From an uncultured bacterium (GTDB lineage Bacteria; Patescibacteriota; CPR2; UBA1875; CAIMLA01), in assembly GCA_903842085.1 (NCBI GenBank), contig CAIMLA010000043.1, positions 1,563 to 65,562 of the forward strand: 64,000 bases of DNA, written 5' to 3'. Position 1 is the first letter of the stretch; each line of letters begins with the position of its first letter. Of this stretch, positions 38,024 through 47,356 are shown one piece after another. The notes under the pieces were generated by a model that worked only from the letters and a program-made list of their open reading frames with translations, was not told where the DNA came from and did not search any database. The position numbers were made by a program, and so were the translations under genes.

Positions 38024-38912
38024 TTTACAAAAAAGCGTAACTCTCGCACCCTATACGACTTATAGAATTGGAGGTAACGCTGATTATTTTTTTGTCGCAA
38101 AAACAAAAGAAGCCTTAATCGAGGCTTTGGCGTGGGCGAGCAAGGAGGGGATAGCTTATGTCATAATCGGCGGGGGAAGCAATCTTTTAATCTCAGACGC
38201 AGGTTTCCGTGGCTTAGTTATATTAAATCGATCAAATAAATACTCAATATCTGATGGTCTGGTGATATCAGAGAGTGGGATGATTTTATCAACCCTGGCT
38301 CGAAAAACAGTTGATTTAAGTTTAAGTAATTTGGATTTTGCGATGAATATTCCGGGTACCGTTGGCGGAGCGGTTGTTGGTAATGCGGGAGCTTACGGTA
38401 AAGAAATCTCTAATTCCTTAGATTCAGCCCTGGTTTGGTCTGCCAAAGAAGGACTAAAAAAACATCTGAAGGAGGATTTAGGGTTTGCTTATCGATCGTC
38501 GACCTTAAAAAACAACCATGAATCGGTTTTAATCGAAGCCGAATTTCAAATGCAAAAAGAAGATAAGGAGCTGATGCTTGAAAAAGCTAAAAGCGATTTA
38601 GAAAAAAGAAAACATGACTATCAAGGTTTATCCTGTGGTAGCTATTTCAAAAACCCAATCAATAAAAAAATAAATTTAAACAAAGAAACGATTGATAACC
38701 CCTCAGCTGGATTATTAATTGATAGTTTAGGCTTAAAAGGGCTCTCTGTTGGTGGAGCGAGTGTTAGTAAATATCATGCTAATGTTATCGTCAATAAAAA
38801 CAAAGCAACTGCAAAAGATATTATAAATCTTGAGAAATTAATTATTAAAAAAGTGAAAGAGAGATATGATATCGAGCTACAATCAGAGGTGACAAAAATA
38901 GGTATAGTTTAG
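38013..38912 (+). CDS. murB: UDP-N-acetylenolpyruvoylglucosamine reductase
   Basis: LAPYTTYRIGGNADYF, GGGSNLL and GSYFKNP are MurB motifs. The start overlaps the previous gene by 11 nt. Confidence 0.88.
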   Translation: MLNNLQKSVTLAPYTTYRIGGNADYFFVAKTKEALIEALAWASKEGIAYVIIGGGSNLLISDAGFRGLVILNRSNKYSISDGLVISESGMILSTLARKTVDLSLSNLDFAMNIPGTVGGAVVGNAGAYGKEISNSLDSALVWSAKEGLKKHLKEDLGFAYRSSTLKNNHESVLIEAEFQMQKEDKELMLEKAKSDLEKRKHDYQGLSCGSYFKNPINKKINLNKETIDNPSAGLLIDSLGLKGLSVGGASVSKYHANVIVNKNKATAKDIINLEKLIIKKVKERYDIELQSEVTKIGIV

Positions 38913-38938
38913 TAATTTTATTTATCTTGGAAACAAAA

Positions 38939-38968
38939 AGGGTGCCGATTGGCACTCTCTATTTATTG
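38939..38968 (+). terminator. Terminator candidate after murB
   Basis: AGGGTGCC-GATT-GGCACTCT forms 8 bp including one G-U, followed by the T-rich CTATTTATTGTT. Confidence 0.5.
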
Positions 38969-38994
38969 TTACTAAATATTTTTCATTAGAGTTA

Positions 38995-39009
38995 TGACAA
39001 AGCAAGGTT
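38995..39009 (+). repeat. Left arm of the 15-bp perfect inverted repeat
   Basis: TGACAAAGCAAGGTT, followed by GGTAAAGT. The right arm is followed, on its own strand, by ATCCTA-GGCTAAAGT. Confidence 0.9.
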
Positions 39010-39026
39010 GGTAAAGTATGTTGGGA

Positions 39027-39059
39027 GGGCGGAGCGCACAGAATGTGTGCACTCCGCCC
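39027..39059 (-). terminator. GC-rich 13-bp hairpin 20 nt downstream of the high-GC ORF stop
   Basis: GGGCGGAG-C-GCACA-GAATG-TGTGC-A-CTCCGCCC. No clear U-tract follows on the minus strand, so terminator function is uncertain. An alternative helix is GCGCACA (39034-39040) with TGTGCGC (39062-39068). Confidence 0.45.
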
Positions 39060-39078
39060 AATGTGCGCGTTTTAAAGG

Positions 39079-39624
39079 CTAGGCCTTGGCGCGAGCCCGC
39101 TTCTTGGCGTTTTTGGTTTTGCCCCCGGCGGGGGCCGGCTTGGCCCCGCTGGACCCCTTCTCAGGGCCGGCCGTCGATGTGGCGAGCTTCCTCGCCCTCT
39201 GGGCGGCTTTTCGAGCCTCCAGAGTTTGGGGGTCGGCTTTGGCCCGCTGTGGCCGATTCAGGTTCCGGAGAACCCGAACGGCTTCAGCAAGAAAGAGGGG
39301 ATTGAGGTACCTCTCGGCACTCTCGACCCCGTGTTCCCGACAGAGGTAAAATGCTACCTCTGCGAGGAACCGTCTTGTCTGATTGAATTCTCCGTCCAAA
39401 ATCGCGGTTTTCACCGCGGAAAAATGGACGTGGTAAGCTTTCAAAGCCATGACTCGTCTCGACACCGAGTCGATCTTGACTCGGCCCTGGTTGGATATGA
39501 AGACCAACCAGCTTTCGAGGCAGCCCATCAGGGCCTCCTCAGAGTCGATGTTGAGTGCCGTTTCGAACTCCTGGTAACGCTGGGCATTCGGCCCAACGGT
39601 TATGGTGATGACGACGTCCGACAT
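39079..39624 (-). CDS. Hypothetical protein, high GC, with a basic Lys/Ala/Pro/Arg-rich C-terminal tail
   Basis: 181 aa, with AAGGAG 5 nt upstream of the ATG. Third codon positions are strongly G/C-biased in this frame only (about three quarters of the first 28 codons). The tail reads ...RKAAQRARKLATSTAGPEKGSSGAKPAPAGGKTKNAKKRARAKA. No family was recognised for residues 1-130. Confidence 0.7.
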   Translation of the reverse strand: MSDVVITITVGPNAQRYQEFETALNIDSEEALMGCLESWLVFISNQGRVKIDSVSRRVMALKAYHVHFSAVKTAILDGEFNQTRRFLAEVAFYLCREHGVESAERYLNPLFLAEAVRVLRNLNRPQRAKADPQTLEARKAAQRARKLATSTAGPEKGSSGAKPAPAGGKTKNAKKRARAKA

Positions 39625-39717
39625 CTCGACTCCTTTTGCGTGGTTTTAAGAACAAAAATATACTTTAAGGCTTTTAGAACACTACTATTTTGCAATAGAG
39701 TGACTTTAGCCTAGGAT

Positions 39718-39732
39718 AACCTTGCTTTGTCA
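39718..39732 (-). repeat. Right arm of the 15-bp perfect inverted repeat
   Basis: The plus strand reads AACCTTGCTTTGTCA, which is the reverse complement of 38995-39009. Confidence 0.9.
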
Positions 39733-39779
39733 ATGAGCTTTGGTACTTCGAAAAAGTTTAACTCTCTCGAACAGCGAAT

Positions 39780-39808
39780 ATAATAGCATAAACAGAGCTA
39801 ATAGTCAA
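39780..39808 (-). promoter_or_regulatory. Sigma70-like promoter facing the high-GC ORF, located outside the right inverted repeat (TTGACT-17 nt-TATTAT on the minus strand)
   Basis: The minus strand reads TTGACT attagctctgtttatgc TATTAT. The -35 is at 39803-39808 and the -10 at 39780-39785. It would give a 5' UTR of about 150 nt that includes the right repeat arm. Confidence 0.45.
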
Positions 39809-39905
39809 GTGTTTTGTGGAGACTAATTGAGAAGATATATTGCAGATAAAACAAGAAGCCGCTCGATTGACATATTCGCGAAAACACATCTCACTTGCGG
39901 CTCCA

Positions 39906-39960
39906 ACTATAGTTTAACAACACGCCTAATTTTAGGCAGCTTGTTGTATTCAGCTATAGT
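39906..39960. other. Nested three-helix hairpin in non-coding DNA (candidate structured RNA element)
   Basis: ACTATAG-TTTA-ACAACA-C-GCCTA-ATTT-TAGGC-AGCT-TGTTGT-ATTCAG-CTATAGT gives 7+6+5 = 18 Watson-Crick pairs within 55 nt. The strand is unknown. Confidence 0.35.
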
Positions 39961-40173
39961 CCCTCCTTTGCTAAGCCTTCAAAATACAGACTGAGTCCGT
40001 AGCTCTATTAACGCACTAGATAGCTTCTTTTATTCACTATCTAATTTGTCATAGTCGAGCGCGTAGCTCAAGCCTTGGCATCTGTATCTCTCCAGTTTAA
40101 CCGGGAGGGAGAAAAAATCGTCTTTGTGATTATTTCTCTCTCACGATTAAAGGTAAAATCATTATAACATCTT

Positions 40174-42780
40174 TTATTTTACTGTCACAGTAACATTGCT
40201 GCTAGCAGTTTGTCCAATCTTATCGGTGACTGTTGCGATAATATCAGCTGAAGCCCCTGATGGTTTATCAAAAGTTGCGACATAATTAGTCCCGTCTAGA
40301 GTTGCTTCTTTGGATTGACTGCCAATTTTGATCGTCACAGATTGAACCCCATTTGGAGCAGTTATCGTCACACTAACACTATACGGTGTCGCGAAATCGT
40401 CACTCGCTTTTAGGGTCGTAAAAGATATTGTCGGGGCGCCTTGGTTAATTGGACAGGTATCCTGGCCAATTTGTTCTGATCCAGAAGTTGAATAACCGCT
40501 ACTTGCTGTCCAAGCTCCGATCGGAGCAAACCATCTGCCATAAGAGGCATCGGTCGAAGGAATCTCGGCCGTGACGACGTTGATCGTTCTCGTCTCAATT
40601 TGAGCTGGGTCTGGAGGACAACTGTTGTTAACAAGTTTACCTGAAAGTTTATTAATTTTAAGTTCTGTAGCGGCCACAGCGTCTTGAATATTATACCAAG
40701 ATGGGAAAATATCTGTTACCGTTTTGCTCCCAGCGACTGGTTTTTTACCGGTGACGGCGTCTAGAGTCACCGTTTTTATCCCACTGGGTCTGGTAAATTG
40801 TTCATTGGGAGTCCCGTTGAGGGCGTTAATCATATAATCGTGCCAAATTGGGGCAGCCGCAATCGAACCACCGGCTTTTGTCATGGGGGTTCCATCATTA
40901 TTACCAGCCCAAACGCCTGTTACTAAGCTTGGGGTGTAACCAAGCGTCCAAGCGTCTTTGTAATCATTGGTAGTTCCGGTTTTGGCGGCGACTGGGCGAC
41001 CATGGAGCGTTAGGGGGCCACCGGTACCAAAGACATCTGCTCGGGCGTAATCATCAGATAAAACATTGCTTATCAGATATGTAATTTGTGAATCTAAGAC
41101 TTTTTTACCAGCATTTTCTTTGTATTCATCAATTGTTTTTCCTTTCGCGTCTTCAACTTTAATATACCAACTTGGGTCTTGTTTGACGCCACTATTAGCA
41201 AAAACCCCATAAGCATTGACCATATCTAAAAGCTTAACCTCTCCAGCGCCCAAGACAAGGGATAGGCCGTAAAGGCTTTTATCGTTTAAAGTTGTAATCC
41301 CCATTGCGTGGACGGTATCGATAACGTTATCAAGGCCAGCGATATAAAGTGTTTTTACCGCTGGGATATTGAGTGAGTTTTGCAAGGCGCTTCTCATCGT
41401 GACCGGTCCGCGAAATCGGCCATCATAATTACTGGGCACATAACCGCCGCCAAAATCAGTCTTTAGATCAAAGAGCACACTTCCAGGACCCCAATTATTT
41501 AACTTCCAAGCAGTTGCATAGGCAAAAGGTTTGAAAGAGGAACCAGGCTGACGATCCATAACCGCAACATTGACATTGCCATCTATATCAGGATTAAAGA
41601 AATCACGACTGCCAACCATGGCCAAGATTTGACCAGTTTTCGGATCCATCGAAACTAAGGATGCATTTGAGGCATTGTAAGCAGTCCGATTTTTGTCAAC
41701 GTTGGTTGCAACTGCCTCCTCGGCATATTGCTGTTTCGTGATATCTAAAGTGGTATAAACCTTTAAACCGCCTTCATTGACCAGTTTTTCACCGTATTTT
41801 TCGACTAGTTTTTCTTTGACATACATTACAAAGTGAGGTGCCGTGATGGAGCCATAAGGATTTTGCGAGAAGGCAACTTCTTTTTTCATGGCAGCTTCAG
41901 CATCCTTGGTCGTAATAAATTTTTGAGCGGCCATATCTTTTAAGACTTGATCTTTTCTTTTTAAGAGCAAAGCTTTATTTGTCCCGTAAGGAGAATAATA
42001 AGTTGGAGCTTGAGGCAGGGCGGCCAAGGTCGAACATTCTTCTAAACTTAAATCTTTTAAATCTTTATTAAAATAAGTTTTTGCGGCAACTTTAATCCCA
42101 TAAGCATTAGAGCCATATGGAATTTCATTGAGATACATTTTTAAAATATCGTCTTTCTTGTACATCTGTTCTATTTCGATTGAAAGGATGATCTCTTTAA
42201 TCTTGCGAGAATAAGACCTCTCGGTTGTTAGGAGGGCGTTCCGTACAAATTGTTGGGTGATTGTTGAGCCACCGCCTTTGGTGCGATCACCAGTAATAAT
42301 ACCGGAAAAAGCTCTGGCAATACCGCGGACACTAAAACCACTGTGCTTATAAAAATCTTTGTCCTCAATCGCGATCGTGGCATTTTTACAATTTTGAGGA
42401 ATCTCATCCCAGCCAGCCATGAGCCGATTTTTGTCGCCGTGGATCTCATAGAGAAGTTTTCCGTTTCGATCAAAAATCTGAGTCGATTGAGCCGAAATAC
42501 GAGCATTTATTTTGTTTGGAGTTGGTAAATCCTTGGCATACCAGGCAAAAACACCAAAGAGGAGGCCCAGAAAAACTACGGTAACGAGGCCGATTTTCTT
42601 CCAACCACTTTTTGTCGTAAAAAGTGACTTTAATGATTCTTTAAAGCCTGAGAAATTTAAATTCTTAAAGGAGAATCCCTTTTTTTGTCGAGACCGAACG
42701 GCTGTCTTGGCAGAACGAGGACGCGAAAAAGTTCGATAACTTTGTCTTGAGCGTCGCTTTCTCGGTTTATATAAAGGCAT
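40174..42780 (-). CDS. Bifunctional class A penicillin-binding protein (PBP1A-type transglycosylase/transpeptidase) with a C-terminal Ig-like extension
   Basis: GT51 motifs (AIEDKDFYKHSGF, GGSTITQQ), transpeptidase SSFKP, SLN and KTGTT, an N-terminal TM anchor, and a beta-rich C-terminal segment of about 130 aa. Confidence 0.92.
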   Translation of the reverse strand: MPLYKPRKRRSRQSYRTFSRPRSAKTAVRSRQKKGFSFKNLNFSGFKESLKSLFTTKSGWKKIGLVTVVFLGLLFGVFAWYAKDLPTPNKINARISAQSTQIFDRNGKLLYEIHGDKNRLMAGWDEIPQNCKNATIAIEDKDFYKHSGFSVRGIARAFSGIITGDRTKGGGSTITQQFVRNALLTTERSYSRKIKEIILSIEIEQMYKKDDILKMYLNEIPYGSNAYGIKVAAKTYFNKDLKDLSLEECSTLAALPQAPTYYSPYGTNKALLLKRKDQVLKDMAAQKFITTKDAEAAMKKEVAFSQNPYGSITAPHFVMYVKEKLVEKYGEKLVNEGGLKVYTTLDITKQQYAEEAVATNVDKNRTAYNASNASLVSMDPKTGQILAMVGSRDFFNPDIDGNVNVAVMDRQPGSSFKPFAYATAWKLNNWGPGSVLFDLKTDFGGGYVPSNYDGRFRGPVTMRSALQNSLNIPAVKTLYIAGLDNVIDTVHAMGITTLNDKSLYGLSLVLGAGEVKLLDMVNAYGVFANSGVKQDPSWYIKVEDAKGKTIDEYKENAGKKVLDSQITYLISNVLSDDYARADVFGTGGPLTLHGRPVAAKTGTTNDYKDAWTLGYTPSLVTGVWAGNNDGTPMTKAGGSIAAAPIWHDYMINALNGTPNEQFTRPSGIKTVTLDAVTGKKPVAGSKTVTDIFPSWYNIQDAVAATELKINKLSGKLVNNSCPPDPAQIETRTINVVTAEIPSTDASYGRWFAPIGAWTASSGYSTSGSEQIGQDTCPINQGAPTISFTTLKASDDFATPYSVSVTITAPNGVQSVTIKIGSQSKEATLDGTNYVATFDKPSGASADIIATVTDKIGQTASSNVTVTVK

Positions 42781-46395: not shown

Positions 46396-47307
46396 TTGGC
46401 TAAAAAAACAACGAACAACAAACAAAGAGTAGAACCAAAAAACAAACCGACGGTTAAAGACGATCAAGCCGGGAAACCAGAGGACGACGATGGTGAAGTC
46501 GATCCAGCGGCGACCGAGAAAGCGTTTGCGGATGAACTTGGAACGATAGAAACAGAAGAGGAAGCAGATGGTGGGCCATTGAAATTCGATCCAGAGGCGA
46601 ACGACGAGCCAGAAGAAATTGCCAAAAAAGAAGCTCAGATGGTAACGGTACCGACACGAAAAGCGGTTCGACCTGCAATCTTTGGGCTAGGGGTCTTGAG
46701 CGGCATTATTATCGCTATGATTATTTTTGGTATTTATTATTACATGGTTGGCCAGGAGGTTTGTGATAGTTATAATAGCGTTACAAATTCTGAAAAAAAA
46801 TTAACTAGCTTAATCACGTCTCAAAATAATCGAGAAACAAAGATATCTGATGCTTGCCCAACAGTTCTAACAGAAACTGATAATCTAGAAATAGCAAATT
46901 GGAAAACCTACAAAAACGAAAAGTCTGGTTTGTCTTTTTTGATCCCAGCCGATTGGCAGGAGTCTAAACCGGCCACGACTAATCAATTTTTCTTTAAAGC
47001 ACCAGGAGATGTTGCAGCGACGCTTAATGTCGGGATTGGGGAGGCGGCTTCGATCACAACGGTCGATGGCTATATTTTGAAAACAACCTCAACAGAAAAA
47101 GTTGCCTGTAATGCGGCCAAAGTAAAAACTTATGTTGATAGTAATCAAAACGAAGCAAACCGTATTAAAACAGCGACTTTTACGGCTTCTAGCACTCCTT
47201 ATCTATTTGAATACGCCTGGCAGACAAATATGGGAGCATCCGTCTCAAGCGACTATTCTGATCTCTTTGATTTGATCTTAAAGACAGTTAGTATCACAAA
47301 AGTGTAA
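46396..47307 (+). CDS. Hypothetical membrane-anchored protein with an acidic N-terminal region
   Basis: An acidic cytoplasmic N-terminus of about 90 aa, one TM helix (IFGLGVLSGIIIAMIIFGIYYYMV), and an extracytoplasmic domain with WKTYKNEKSGLSFLIPADWQ. Confidence 0.55.
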   Translation: MAKKTTNNKQRVEPKNKPTVKDDQAGKPEDDDGEVDPAATEKAFADELGTIETEEEADGGPLKFDPEANDEPEEIAKKEAQMVTVPTRKAVRPAIFGLGVLSGIIIAMIIFGIYYYMVGQEVCDSYNSVTNSEKKLTSLITSQNNRETKISDACPTVLTETDNLEIANWKTYKNEKSGLSFLIPADWQESKPATTNQFFFKAPGDVAATLNVGIGEAASITTVDGYILKTTSTEKVACNAAKVKTYVDSNQNEANRIKTATFTASSTPYLFEYAWQTNMGASVSSDYSDLFDLILKTVSITKV

Positions 47308-47317
47308 AAAAGAACTC

Positions 47318-47356
47318 AGCCCGAGCAAAGGTGATTCCTTTGCTCGGGCTGTTTTA
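47318..47356. terminator. Strong intrinsic terminator (possibly bidirectional)
   Basis: AGCCCGAGCAAAGG-TGATT-CCTTTGCTCGGGCT forms a 14-bp perfect stem, followed by GTTTTA and preceded by an A-run. Confidence 0.7.

Follow-up and report, generated by a model that had tools for sequence, protein, structure and literature searches.

What are two perfect 15-nucleotide (nt) inverted repeats doing around a single GC-rich gene in the chromosomal core DNA of a Patescibacteria-like genome? The question is raised by a stretch of 64,000 nt from an uncultured bacterium (GTDB lineage Patescibacteriota; CPR2; assembly GCA_903842085.1, contig CAIMLA010000043.1, positions 1,563 to 65,562; hereafter the window), in which the gene, here called X, lies with its repeats between murB and the gene for PBP1A. 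A preliminary description took this segment for a compositionally foreign one-gene cassette with functional repeats, and X does belong to a distinct unit in which the repeats are strictly conserved. Because the predicted transcript contains both arms of the repeat and conservation of the unit does not stop at the 5' arm, we read the arms as the two strands of a long-range RNA helix between the 5' and 3' untranslated regions (UTRs) of one X transcript, a reading absent from the earlier hypotheses and one to which we give slightly better than even credence.

The repeat itself is as first described: TGACAAAGCAAGGTT occupies positions 38995-39009 and its exact reverse complement 39718-39732, with a spacer of 708 nt, and no further copy of the 15-mer with up to two mismatches occurs elsewhere in the window. 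An inner inverted pair (39012-39022 / 39657-39667, complementary at 10 of 11 positions) had been overlooked. The earlier estimate that such a repeat arises by chance about once in a thousand is valid for this intergenic region and weak for the whole window: of 100 block-shuffled versions of the 64 kb, 10 contained one or more perfect inverted pairs of 15-mers no more than 1.3 kb apart. At window scale the pair is statistically unremarkable, and we take it to be real not on statistical grounds but because it is conserved in relatives. The window has just one more perfect inverted pair of 15-mers with arms up to 1.5 kb apart, a hairpin at 47317-47351 (15 bp, 5-nt loop) directly past an open reading frame (ORF) ending at 47307; it is probably a terminator.

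The reported jump in GC content, from about 33% to about 59% with one 60-nt line at 80%, was reproduced. GC is 0.27-0.39 in the flanks, 0.58-0.70 over 39000-39250 and 0.34-0.36 again by 39600-39750; the 60 nt at 39121-39180 reach 80%, and the X ORF has 59.3% GC against 40.3% for the window. X is the strongest GC anomaly in the window (300-nt maximum 0.64), the other regions above 0.50 being a tRNA cluster (0.56) and sites near 40750 (0.53) and 22600 (0.52).

As we reconstruct it, X would be the gene of a self-contained minus-strand unit whose 5' half comprises a promoter, a stem-loop, the 5' arm, a covarying UTR hairpin, half of the inner repeat and a ribosome-binding site (RBS), and whose 3' half comprises a structured, GC-rich coding sequence (CDS), a GC hairpin, the other half of the inner repeat, the 3' arm, an AT-rich spacer and a terminator. 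Its features, in the order of transcription and in window coordinates, are:

39780-39808, minus strand: predicted sigma-70-type promoter of the X unit (TTGACT, 17 nt, TATTAT; TG before the -10 hexamer; 10 of 12 matches)

39747-39771, minus strand: 5'-proximal stem-loop of the predicted transcript (UUCGAGAGAGU...ACUUUUUCGAA), paired in both the minimum free energy (MFE) and the centroid structure of the predicted mRNA

39718-39732, minus strand: right arm of the repeat, exact reverse complement of the left arm; 5' arm of the mRNA, where it reads UGACAAAGCAAGGUU

39668-39712, minus strand: 5' UTR hairpin that branches off the arm helix and ends in a GNRA loop (CUAUU-GCAA-AAUAG, 39685-39698), from the RNAalifold consensus

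39657-39667, minus strand: inner repeat, 5' half (UAAAGUAUAUU), 10/11 complementary to 39012-39022 and paired with it in the MFE structure

39630-39635, minus strand: RBS AAGGAG (CTCCTT on the plus strand), 5 nt ahead of the ATG

39079-39624, minus strand: gene X, 181 aa, GC 59%, GC at third codon positions (GC3) 0.72, from the ORF, its third-position pattern and homologues P0001-P0015

39027-39059, minus strand: GC-rich hairpin 20 nt past the X stop codon, without a U-tract (arms 39027-39040 / 39046-39059, 14 nt, one mismatch)

39012-39022, minus strand: inner repeat, 3' half (AACAUACUUUA in the mRNA), pairing with 39657-39667

38995-39009, minus strand: left arm of the repeat; 3' arm of the mRNA, where it reads AACCUUGCUUUGUCA; arm duplex -22.5 kcal/mol

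38939-38958, either strand: predicted bidirectional intrinsic terminator, terminator-like on both strands and common to murB (plus) and the X unit (minus)

The ORF and its RBS thus stand where they had been placed. The hairpin past the stop codon, reported as a 13-bp one, is present and GC-rich, with 14-nt arms and one mismatch in place of a perfect 13-mer. A promoter is predicted at 39780-39808, as first noted, and forms part of the conserved unit rather than lying outside it; it is kept in the related contigs L001, L007 and L097. The terminator (38955-38942 within 38939-38958) follows the 3' arm by about 40 nt and is kept in all lineages, and both arms fall between the best predicted promoter and this predicted terminator.

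We found X between murB and the PBP1A gene in more than 10 independent assemblies (ENA, JGI, NCBI and Logan), which represent four related species-level lineages with 77-85% identical murB DNA; all close homologues of X occupy this slot. In every lineage X has 59-64% GC against a background of 36-40%. The preliminary description had reasoned that relatives with the gene in this place but no repeats would speak against the significance of the repeats. The gene is there and the repeats are perfectly conserved: both 15-nt arms are identical to those of the window in every contig that spans them (for the 5' arm, L001, L004, L005, L007, L009 and L097). Because the sequence between the arms diverges greatly, this points to strong constraint on the arms themselves. 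Flanking proteins are 78-100% identical among lineages, compared with 38-46% amino acid identity for X and about 50% identity for its N-terminal DNA, while the last third of X, the 3' hairpin and the 3' arm form the most conserved non-housekeeping DNA of the region (83-96% identity). The inner repeat is unchanged in the window, L001, L007 and L008, and the GC hairpin past the stop codon is retained in L097 through compensatory changes (GGGCAGGG.../...CCCTGCCC).

Conservation of the unit runs about 85 nt outward from the 5' arm and takes in the promoter and the stem-loop. Three unrelated upstream sequences, in L001, in L004 and in L007/L097, meet the unit at a point 8-9 nt ahead of the -35 hexamer, and because the unit continues to this common junction we regard the arms as internal to it, not terminal. 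The junction lies at about 5806 in L001, 134 in L004 and 115 in L007; the equivalent position in the window is about 39817. L001 and L004 carry identical X genes despite their different upstream flanks. Many contigs break 70-330 nt upstream of X, and the variable junction probably accounts for these breaks, which we attribute to co-occurring X alleles together with alternative upstream junctions. A repeat was rejected as their cause, the upstream non-coding region being single-copy in the window.

A MurB-based scan of the GTDB species genomes for an empty site gave one close relative, with X present, and the next best MurB proteins were 41% identical and mostly from Patescibacteria. In JGI metagenomes a 26-nt word of the 3' arm was found at the X locus and nowhere else, and it was absent from IMG/VR.

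Distant members of the X family (21-40% amino acid identity) sit in unrelated genomes and contexts: L095 between tRNA-Gln and TauE genes, L100 between APH and TatD genes, and L096, L099 and L101 beside tRNA genes. Four of the seven out-of-lineage units have a tRNA gene no more than about 500 nt away (L095 1415-1489, L101 574-650, L099 1-67 and L096 1-28), these being tRNA-Gln, tRNA-Pro and two others truncated at contig ends. Each distant X exceeds each of its flanks by at least about 4 GC points, and by at least 13 against host-like flanks. L093, L096, L099 and L100 share one layout, as far as their contigs extend (L096 ends ahead of the 3' arm and L093 begins short of the promoter): a strong sigma-70-type promoter, a small hairpin, a 5' arm akin to UGACAAAGCAAG, a long UTR hairpin, an RBS, a GC-rich CDS, a GC hairpin and a 3' arm that is the complement of the 5' arm in the same unit. 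The best promoter of L099 and L100 precedes the 5' arm by 27-41 nt, a spacing like that of the window, and a hairpin of other sequence, read directly, occupies the position of the 5'-proximal stem-loop. The GC hairpin past the stop codon is also present in L093, L095, L099, L100 and L101.

Across the arms of the window type, L007, L093, L099 and L100 the sequences differ and complementarity is kept, with 92% of cells in the alignment paired against 35-49% in slid-register controls. Four of the 15 arm pairs are altered on both sides, and the covariation score was reached by none of 500 shuffles. Besides this compensatory change, a 5'-3' closing helix should be thermodynamically favoured in the full-length RNA, and by prediction it is: the arm helix appears in the MFE structure of all seven full-length predicted transcripts, and its pair probabilities in that of the window are 0.8-1.0.

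The elements adjoining the arms behave as RNA structures as well. The 5' UTR hairpin (39668-39712) shows three compensatory pairs among the four lineages in RNAalifold, and its loop is GAAA or GCAA, both GNRA, alongside a closing pair of C-G or U-A; in distant members the analogous hairpin has four compensatory pairs and is rich in G.U pairs. Only 2 nt separate the arm from the inner repeat on the 3' side, whereas on the 5' side they are split by this 48-nt covarying hairpin. Such one-sided placement is the geometry of an RNA three-way junction and is odd for a terminal inverted repeat. In the predicted full-length transcript the RBS is mostly base-paired (unpaired probability 0.01-0.33). Folding of the window mRNA is favoured by about 100 kcal/mol over that of its dinucleotide shuffles (z = -11); tested against synonymous-codon shuffles, the CDS gives z = -6.4 in the window and -6.5 in L097, compared with -0.6 to -3.5 in other members and -0.6 to -2.2 for housekeeping control CDSs.

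In L099 (1206-1262) and L100 (3245-3299) a motif resembling a type III hammerhead ribozyme, with three stems and the complete core CUGAUGA...GAAA including U16.1 and H17, stands directly past the 3' arm. In L099 the core positions C3-U4-G5-A6-N7-G8-A9, G12-A13-A14, A15.1-U16.1 and H17 are all legible and the MFE structure contains the three-way junction; the core recurs in L100, where 10.1-11.1 is a G.U pair and stems II and III differ by compensatory changes. Because the motif begins at the 3' arm, the predicted cleavage would place the arm at the 3' end of the RNA. Activity is a prediction here, and Rfam gave a sub-threshold match in L099 (best of the hammerhead clan, HH9, 17.8 bits against a gathering score of 52; E = 0.046) and none in L100. 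The window differs in having no hammerhead core, a terminator standing there instead. A search of IMG/VR for a hammerhead plus stem III pattern gave 21 matches, none near an X homologue and most, by eye, without a complementary stem II. Rfam searches of the window at gathering thresholds, and of 38900-40200 and its relatives by E-value, returned tRNAs and chance matches only.

Taken together, the observations are consistent with an mRNA whose ends are tied by a helix. In this mechanism the 5' arm would pair with the 3' arm over 15 bp plus an extension of about 8 bp, and the arm helix and the UTR hairpin would form a three-way junction, closing the 546-nt coding region as a panhandle. With both RNA ends in duplex the message may be protected from exonucleases, and the duplex itself may be a substrate of the RNase III (Ribonuclease_3 and dsrm domains) encoded at 21-647 on the plus strand of the window. 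We infer from the burial of the RBS that the message would be long-lived and poorly translated until processed or opened. X alleles would be swapped between strains through recombination inside the unit. What the comparisons show directly is the conservation, the covariation of the arms, the limits of the unit, and the coding status, hypervariability and composition of X; the ends of the transcript, pairing in the cell and all effects on function are predictions.

Several observations weigh against this reading. The arm alignment was made by hand and holds five distinct sequences; its asymmetric changes, two G.U pairs and two A.C/C.A mismatches, come close to the neutral expectation, so that the arms alone cannot separate RNA from DNA, and covariation of the arms is equally expected of symmetric DNA sites. 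The inner repeat of L097 has one change in each half, and these do not compensate each other. L095 and L101 have no recognisable arms, and in L101 the GC hairpin past the stop codon carries a U-tract with no 3' arm visible. The GC hairpin past the stop codon could end some transcripts ahead of the 3' arm. Transcript start and end points are consensus predictions, and the excess of structure in the CDS is strong in just two or three of eight members. Similarity between L093 and L099 stops exactly where the 3' arm ends on its outer side, which fits a DNA-level boundary too. Because of these caveats we place our confidence in a closing helix a little above even and leave the remainder to readings at the level of DNA.

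Among these, the arms could be the terminal repeats of a non-autonomous mobile cassette, either mobilised in trans or akin to a miniature inverted-repeat transposable element (MITE), with X as its passenger, as was first proposed. Like a MITE, the segment has short perfect inverted repeats around some 0.7 kb with no transposase inside, and mobility would suit the unrelated genomic contexts of the unit, the proximity of four of seven out-of-lineage copies to a tRNA gene, the foreign composition in every host, and the pair L093/L099, whose core is about 94% identical in different flanks up to the outer edge of the 3' arm. The arms are, however, internal to a unit that is conserved for about 85 nt past the 5' arm, and unrelated flanks begin 8-9 nt ahead of the -35 hexamer rather than at the arm. 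The unit contains a full gene with its promoter, the 48-nt hairpin splits arm and inner repeat on one side only, and no target-site duplication is visible in the window (...agagtta / atgagct...), as already noted there, or in L099 or L100. The unit is single-copy in the 64 kb and the arm word is confined to the X locus in JGI and absent from IMG/VR. As previously stated for the window, no transposase, integrase or invertase, and also no reverse transcriptase, was found by a Pfam scan of its ORFs of at least 150 aa (five of which have no Pfam match). We consider a mobile cassette of this kind unlikely. The proposal that the arms are paired DNA operators, bound by a dimeric regulator (X itself or a host factor) that loops or represses the unit, is helped by their invariance within the lineage, where RNA strands might covary freely, by the strongly basic tail of X, and by the -35-like hexamers that, as reported, are present in both arms. 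With the inner repeat, the left arm makes a promoter-like site at 38994-39022 on the plus strand (ATGACA, 17 nt, TATGTT) directed antisense into the 3' end of X; its overlap with the arms keeps this site invariant in the lineage, and it is not conserved in the distant members L099 and L100. The operator sites would be about 720 bp apart and both within the predicted transcript, the adjoining conserved elements are RNA-like (covarying hairpins rich in G.U pairs), and nothing supports the encoded protein as the ligand: searches of Pfam, NCBIfam and PDB sequences gave no helix-turn-helix (HTH) or other DNA-binding domain in X, and its structural model has no fold match. Operators are in our judgement an unlikely explanation.

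The flanks might also be kept as arms for the swapping of X alleles, their complementarity being incidental or serving a site-specific recombinase. X alleles are indeed mosaic (L007 and L008 differ at 65 positions in codons 5-133), L093 and L099 are 95% identical in the centre and about 75-80% at the ends, and the X tree is unlike the flank tree. The exchanged tracts nevertheless end within the CDS and UTR, not at the arms; homologous recombination has no need of inverted orientation, cassette excision expects direct sites, and no recombinase was found in the window ORFs, which together make recombination arms improbable. That the segment inverts and so flips X relative to an outside promoter was suggested by perfect inverted repeats around a gene, and could be connected with the many contigs broken 70-330 nt upstream of X. 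One orientation is seen in all assemblies (the window, L001-L009, L097 and L098), the promoter belongs to the conserved unit, the scan found no invertase and the contig breaks have the other causes given above; we regard inversion as highly improbable. Misassembly, with high-GC DNA joined into a low-GC contig, would explain the abrupt GC shift of about 20-30 points, and is refuted because independent ENA, JGI, NCBI and Logan assemblies, more than 10 in number over four diverged lineages, show the same architecture and junctions.

The closing helix, our favoured reading, has parallels in known systems. In hok/sok, the 'tac-fbi' fold-back helix between the 5' and 3' ends of hok mRNA closes the molecule and keeps it an inert, stable message until 3' processing. 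The X mRNA is likewise predicted to be closed by a long-range 5'-3' helix that buries its translation signals, whereas the Hok toxin is a hydrophobic protein of about 50 aa with the antisense RNA Sok, and X has 181 aa, is soluble and basic, and bears no sequence relationship to it. A type I toxin-antitoxin system was rejected: X is helical (AlphaFold model), basic and soluble, and no conserved antisense gene was found at the unit. In the icaR mRNA of Staphylococcus aureus and the RNase III stems that flank rRNAs, complementary segments far apart form a duplex, which can recruit RNase III and set stability or translation; the X unit also has complementary segments hundreds of nucleotides apart and RNase III is encoded in the window, by which the duplex may be cleaved. 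The icaR 3' UTR pairs with the Shine-Dalgarno region, whereas the X arms lie about 85 nt upstream of the RBS.

Phage morons resemble the unit in being single genes of deviant composition with their own promoter and terminator between unrelated genes. They are not defined by end-pairing arms, and X lies in chromosomal core DNA of a Patescibacteria-like genome, not in a prophage; a tblastn search with X against phages and plasmids gave no match. An integron gene cassette was rejected, the unit having its own conserved promoter and the window ORFs no integrase. The X unit would thus combine long-range pairing of 5' and 3' UTRs with an autonomous single-gene unit, two things of which each kind is already known, in a bacterial lineage that is itself poorly known. 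Pfam matches of the window ORFs of at least 150 aa are to housekeeping families only. Besides RNase III, the window encodes core housekeeping functions: SMC, TrmD, UvrABC, LigA, GatB, a GatA-like amidase, DnaE, NusA, ClpB, MurB, PBP1A, TyrRS, RecG, trigger factor, ClpP, RpoBC, EF-G and EF-Tu.

X itself is, judged by its codons, a protein-coding gene. Differences between the window and L001 alleles fall mostly at third codon positions (40, 32 and 78 at positions 1, 2 and 3), and GC3 is 0.72-0.84 against 0.31-0.37 in neighbouring genes. A plus-strand ORF at 39226-39714 was rejected, the codon-position statistics fitting the minus-strand frame only. In 8 of 12 family members the antisense frame in codon register runs through the entire gene without a stop, for which the simplest account is that TTA, CTA and TCA codons are avoided at high GC3.

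The gene is hypervariable. Between L007 and L008 there are 65 differences over about 385 nt, all within X codons 5-133. Their flanking DNA, some 6 kb, shows 8 substitutions and a single 3-nt indel, and their MurB, PIN and ClpB proteins are identical. About half of the changed codons are synonymous and all substitution types are present. As far as sequence can tell, this pattern is the signature of an imported, diverged allele and not of hypermutation in situ, and the X tree disagrees with the flank tree. Mutagenesis of the kind driven by diversity-generating retroelements was rejected: the window has no reverse transcriptase, and all substitution types occur, with third positions dominant.

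In a search of 5.8 billion proteins X had just a handful of homologues. When 1.84 billion cluster representatives were searched exhaustively with a profile, 10 proteins emerged, and a profile word search gave one more. X belongs to an orphan family of about 13 proteins, which share three motifs, RHPAFQ, LRNxDRP and a basic tail, S-T-A-G-P-x-K-G...G-G-x-T-[KR]-N-A-[KR]-K-R. The AlphaFold model shows a helical domain of about 110 aa (pLDDT above 90 at residues 20-120) and a disordered basic tail. Pfam, PHROGs, NCBIfam and PADLOC gave nothing credible for X and 11 family members, and a PDB sequence profile search with X gave a single marginal match (E = 0.096). The tail, which spans residues of about 146-181 of the window protein, recurs (STAGPxKG ... 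GGxT[KR]NA[KR]KRxR) at the C-terminus of the otherwise unrelated P0013, a coiled-coil-like protein of 429 aa; this suggests a portable C-terminal module, for example a targeting, secretion or nucleic-acid-binding signal. As a hypervariable orphan with a conserved basic tail motif, X is a candidate conflict or effector gene.

GC islands are usually taken as recent imports or misassemblies. X GC3 remains at 0.72-0.96 in hosts of 40-70% GC, and high GC3 is a family-wide property of the coding region in every host rather than a sign of recent import. Its stability over species-level divergence would point to selection on RNA or to an unknown local process, not to recent transfer, and the very high GC3 beside AT-rich UTRs of the same unit likewise argues for selection on the coding RNA over recent import. 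We also considered that the unit is a novel single-gene element, selfish or mobile, that is defined by its RNA: a GC-rich, hyper-structured message closed as a panhandle, its 3' end made by ribozyme or terminator, spread between unrelated small genomes, often beside tRNA genes, and encoding a hypervariable conflict or effector protein. This is unlikely. If true, host-foreign codon usage would be kept by selection on RNA, possibly for extreme stability, for packaging or transfer, or for translation in the GC-rich host cell of an episymbiont. As read here, the unit would be a compact natural case of an mRNA whose ends are tied by a conserved, predicted helix, joined in relatives by a hammerhead-like 3'-end former, in Patescibacteria-like organisms, whose RNA metabolism is almost uncharted.

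Between the X promoter and the PBP1A stop codon (40174) lies a further element, a non-coding stretch of about 260 nt (39848-40109, minus strand). Over this stretch the window and the L001 lineage share 94% identity, compared with about 80% for adjacent genes, and it is missing from the upstream flanks of L004 and L007/L097. Its consensus fold is long and its few differences are compensatory, with six double changes. It is flanked upstream by a strong promoter (GTGACA, 16 nt, TATAAT; 40188-40161) and downstream by a terminator-like hairpin. With no match to Rfam, tRNA or tmRNA (none by ARAGORN), the stretch is probably a novel small RNA. Within it, at about 40080-40047 on the minus strand, a 10-codon ORF (MPRLELRARL) after GGAGAG is identical in L001 and could be a leader peptide or a chance occurrence.

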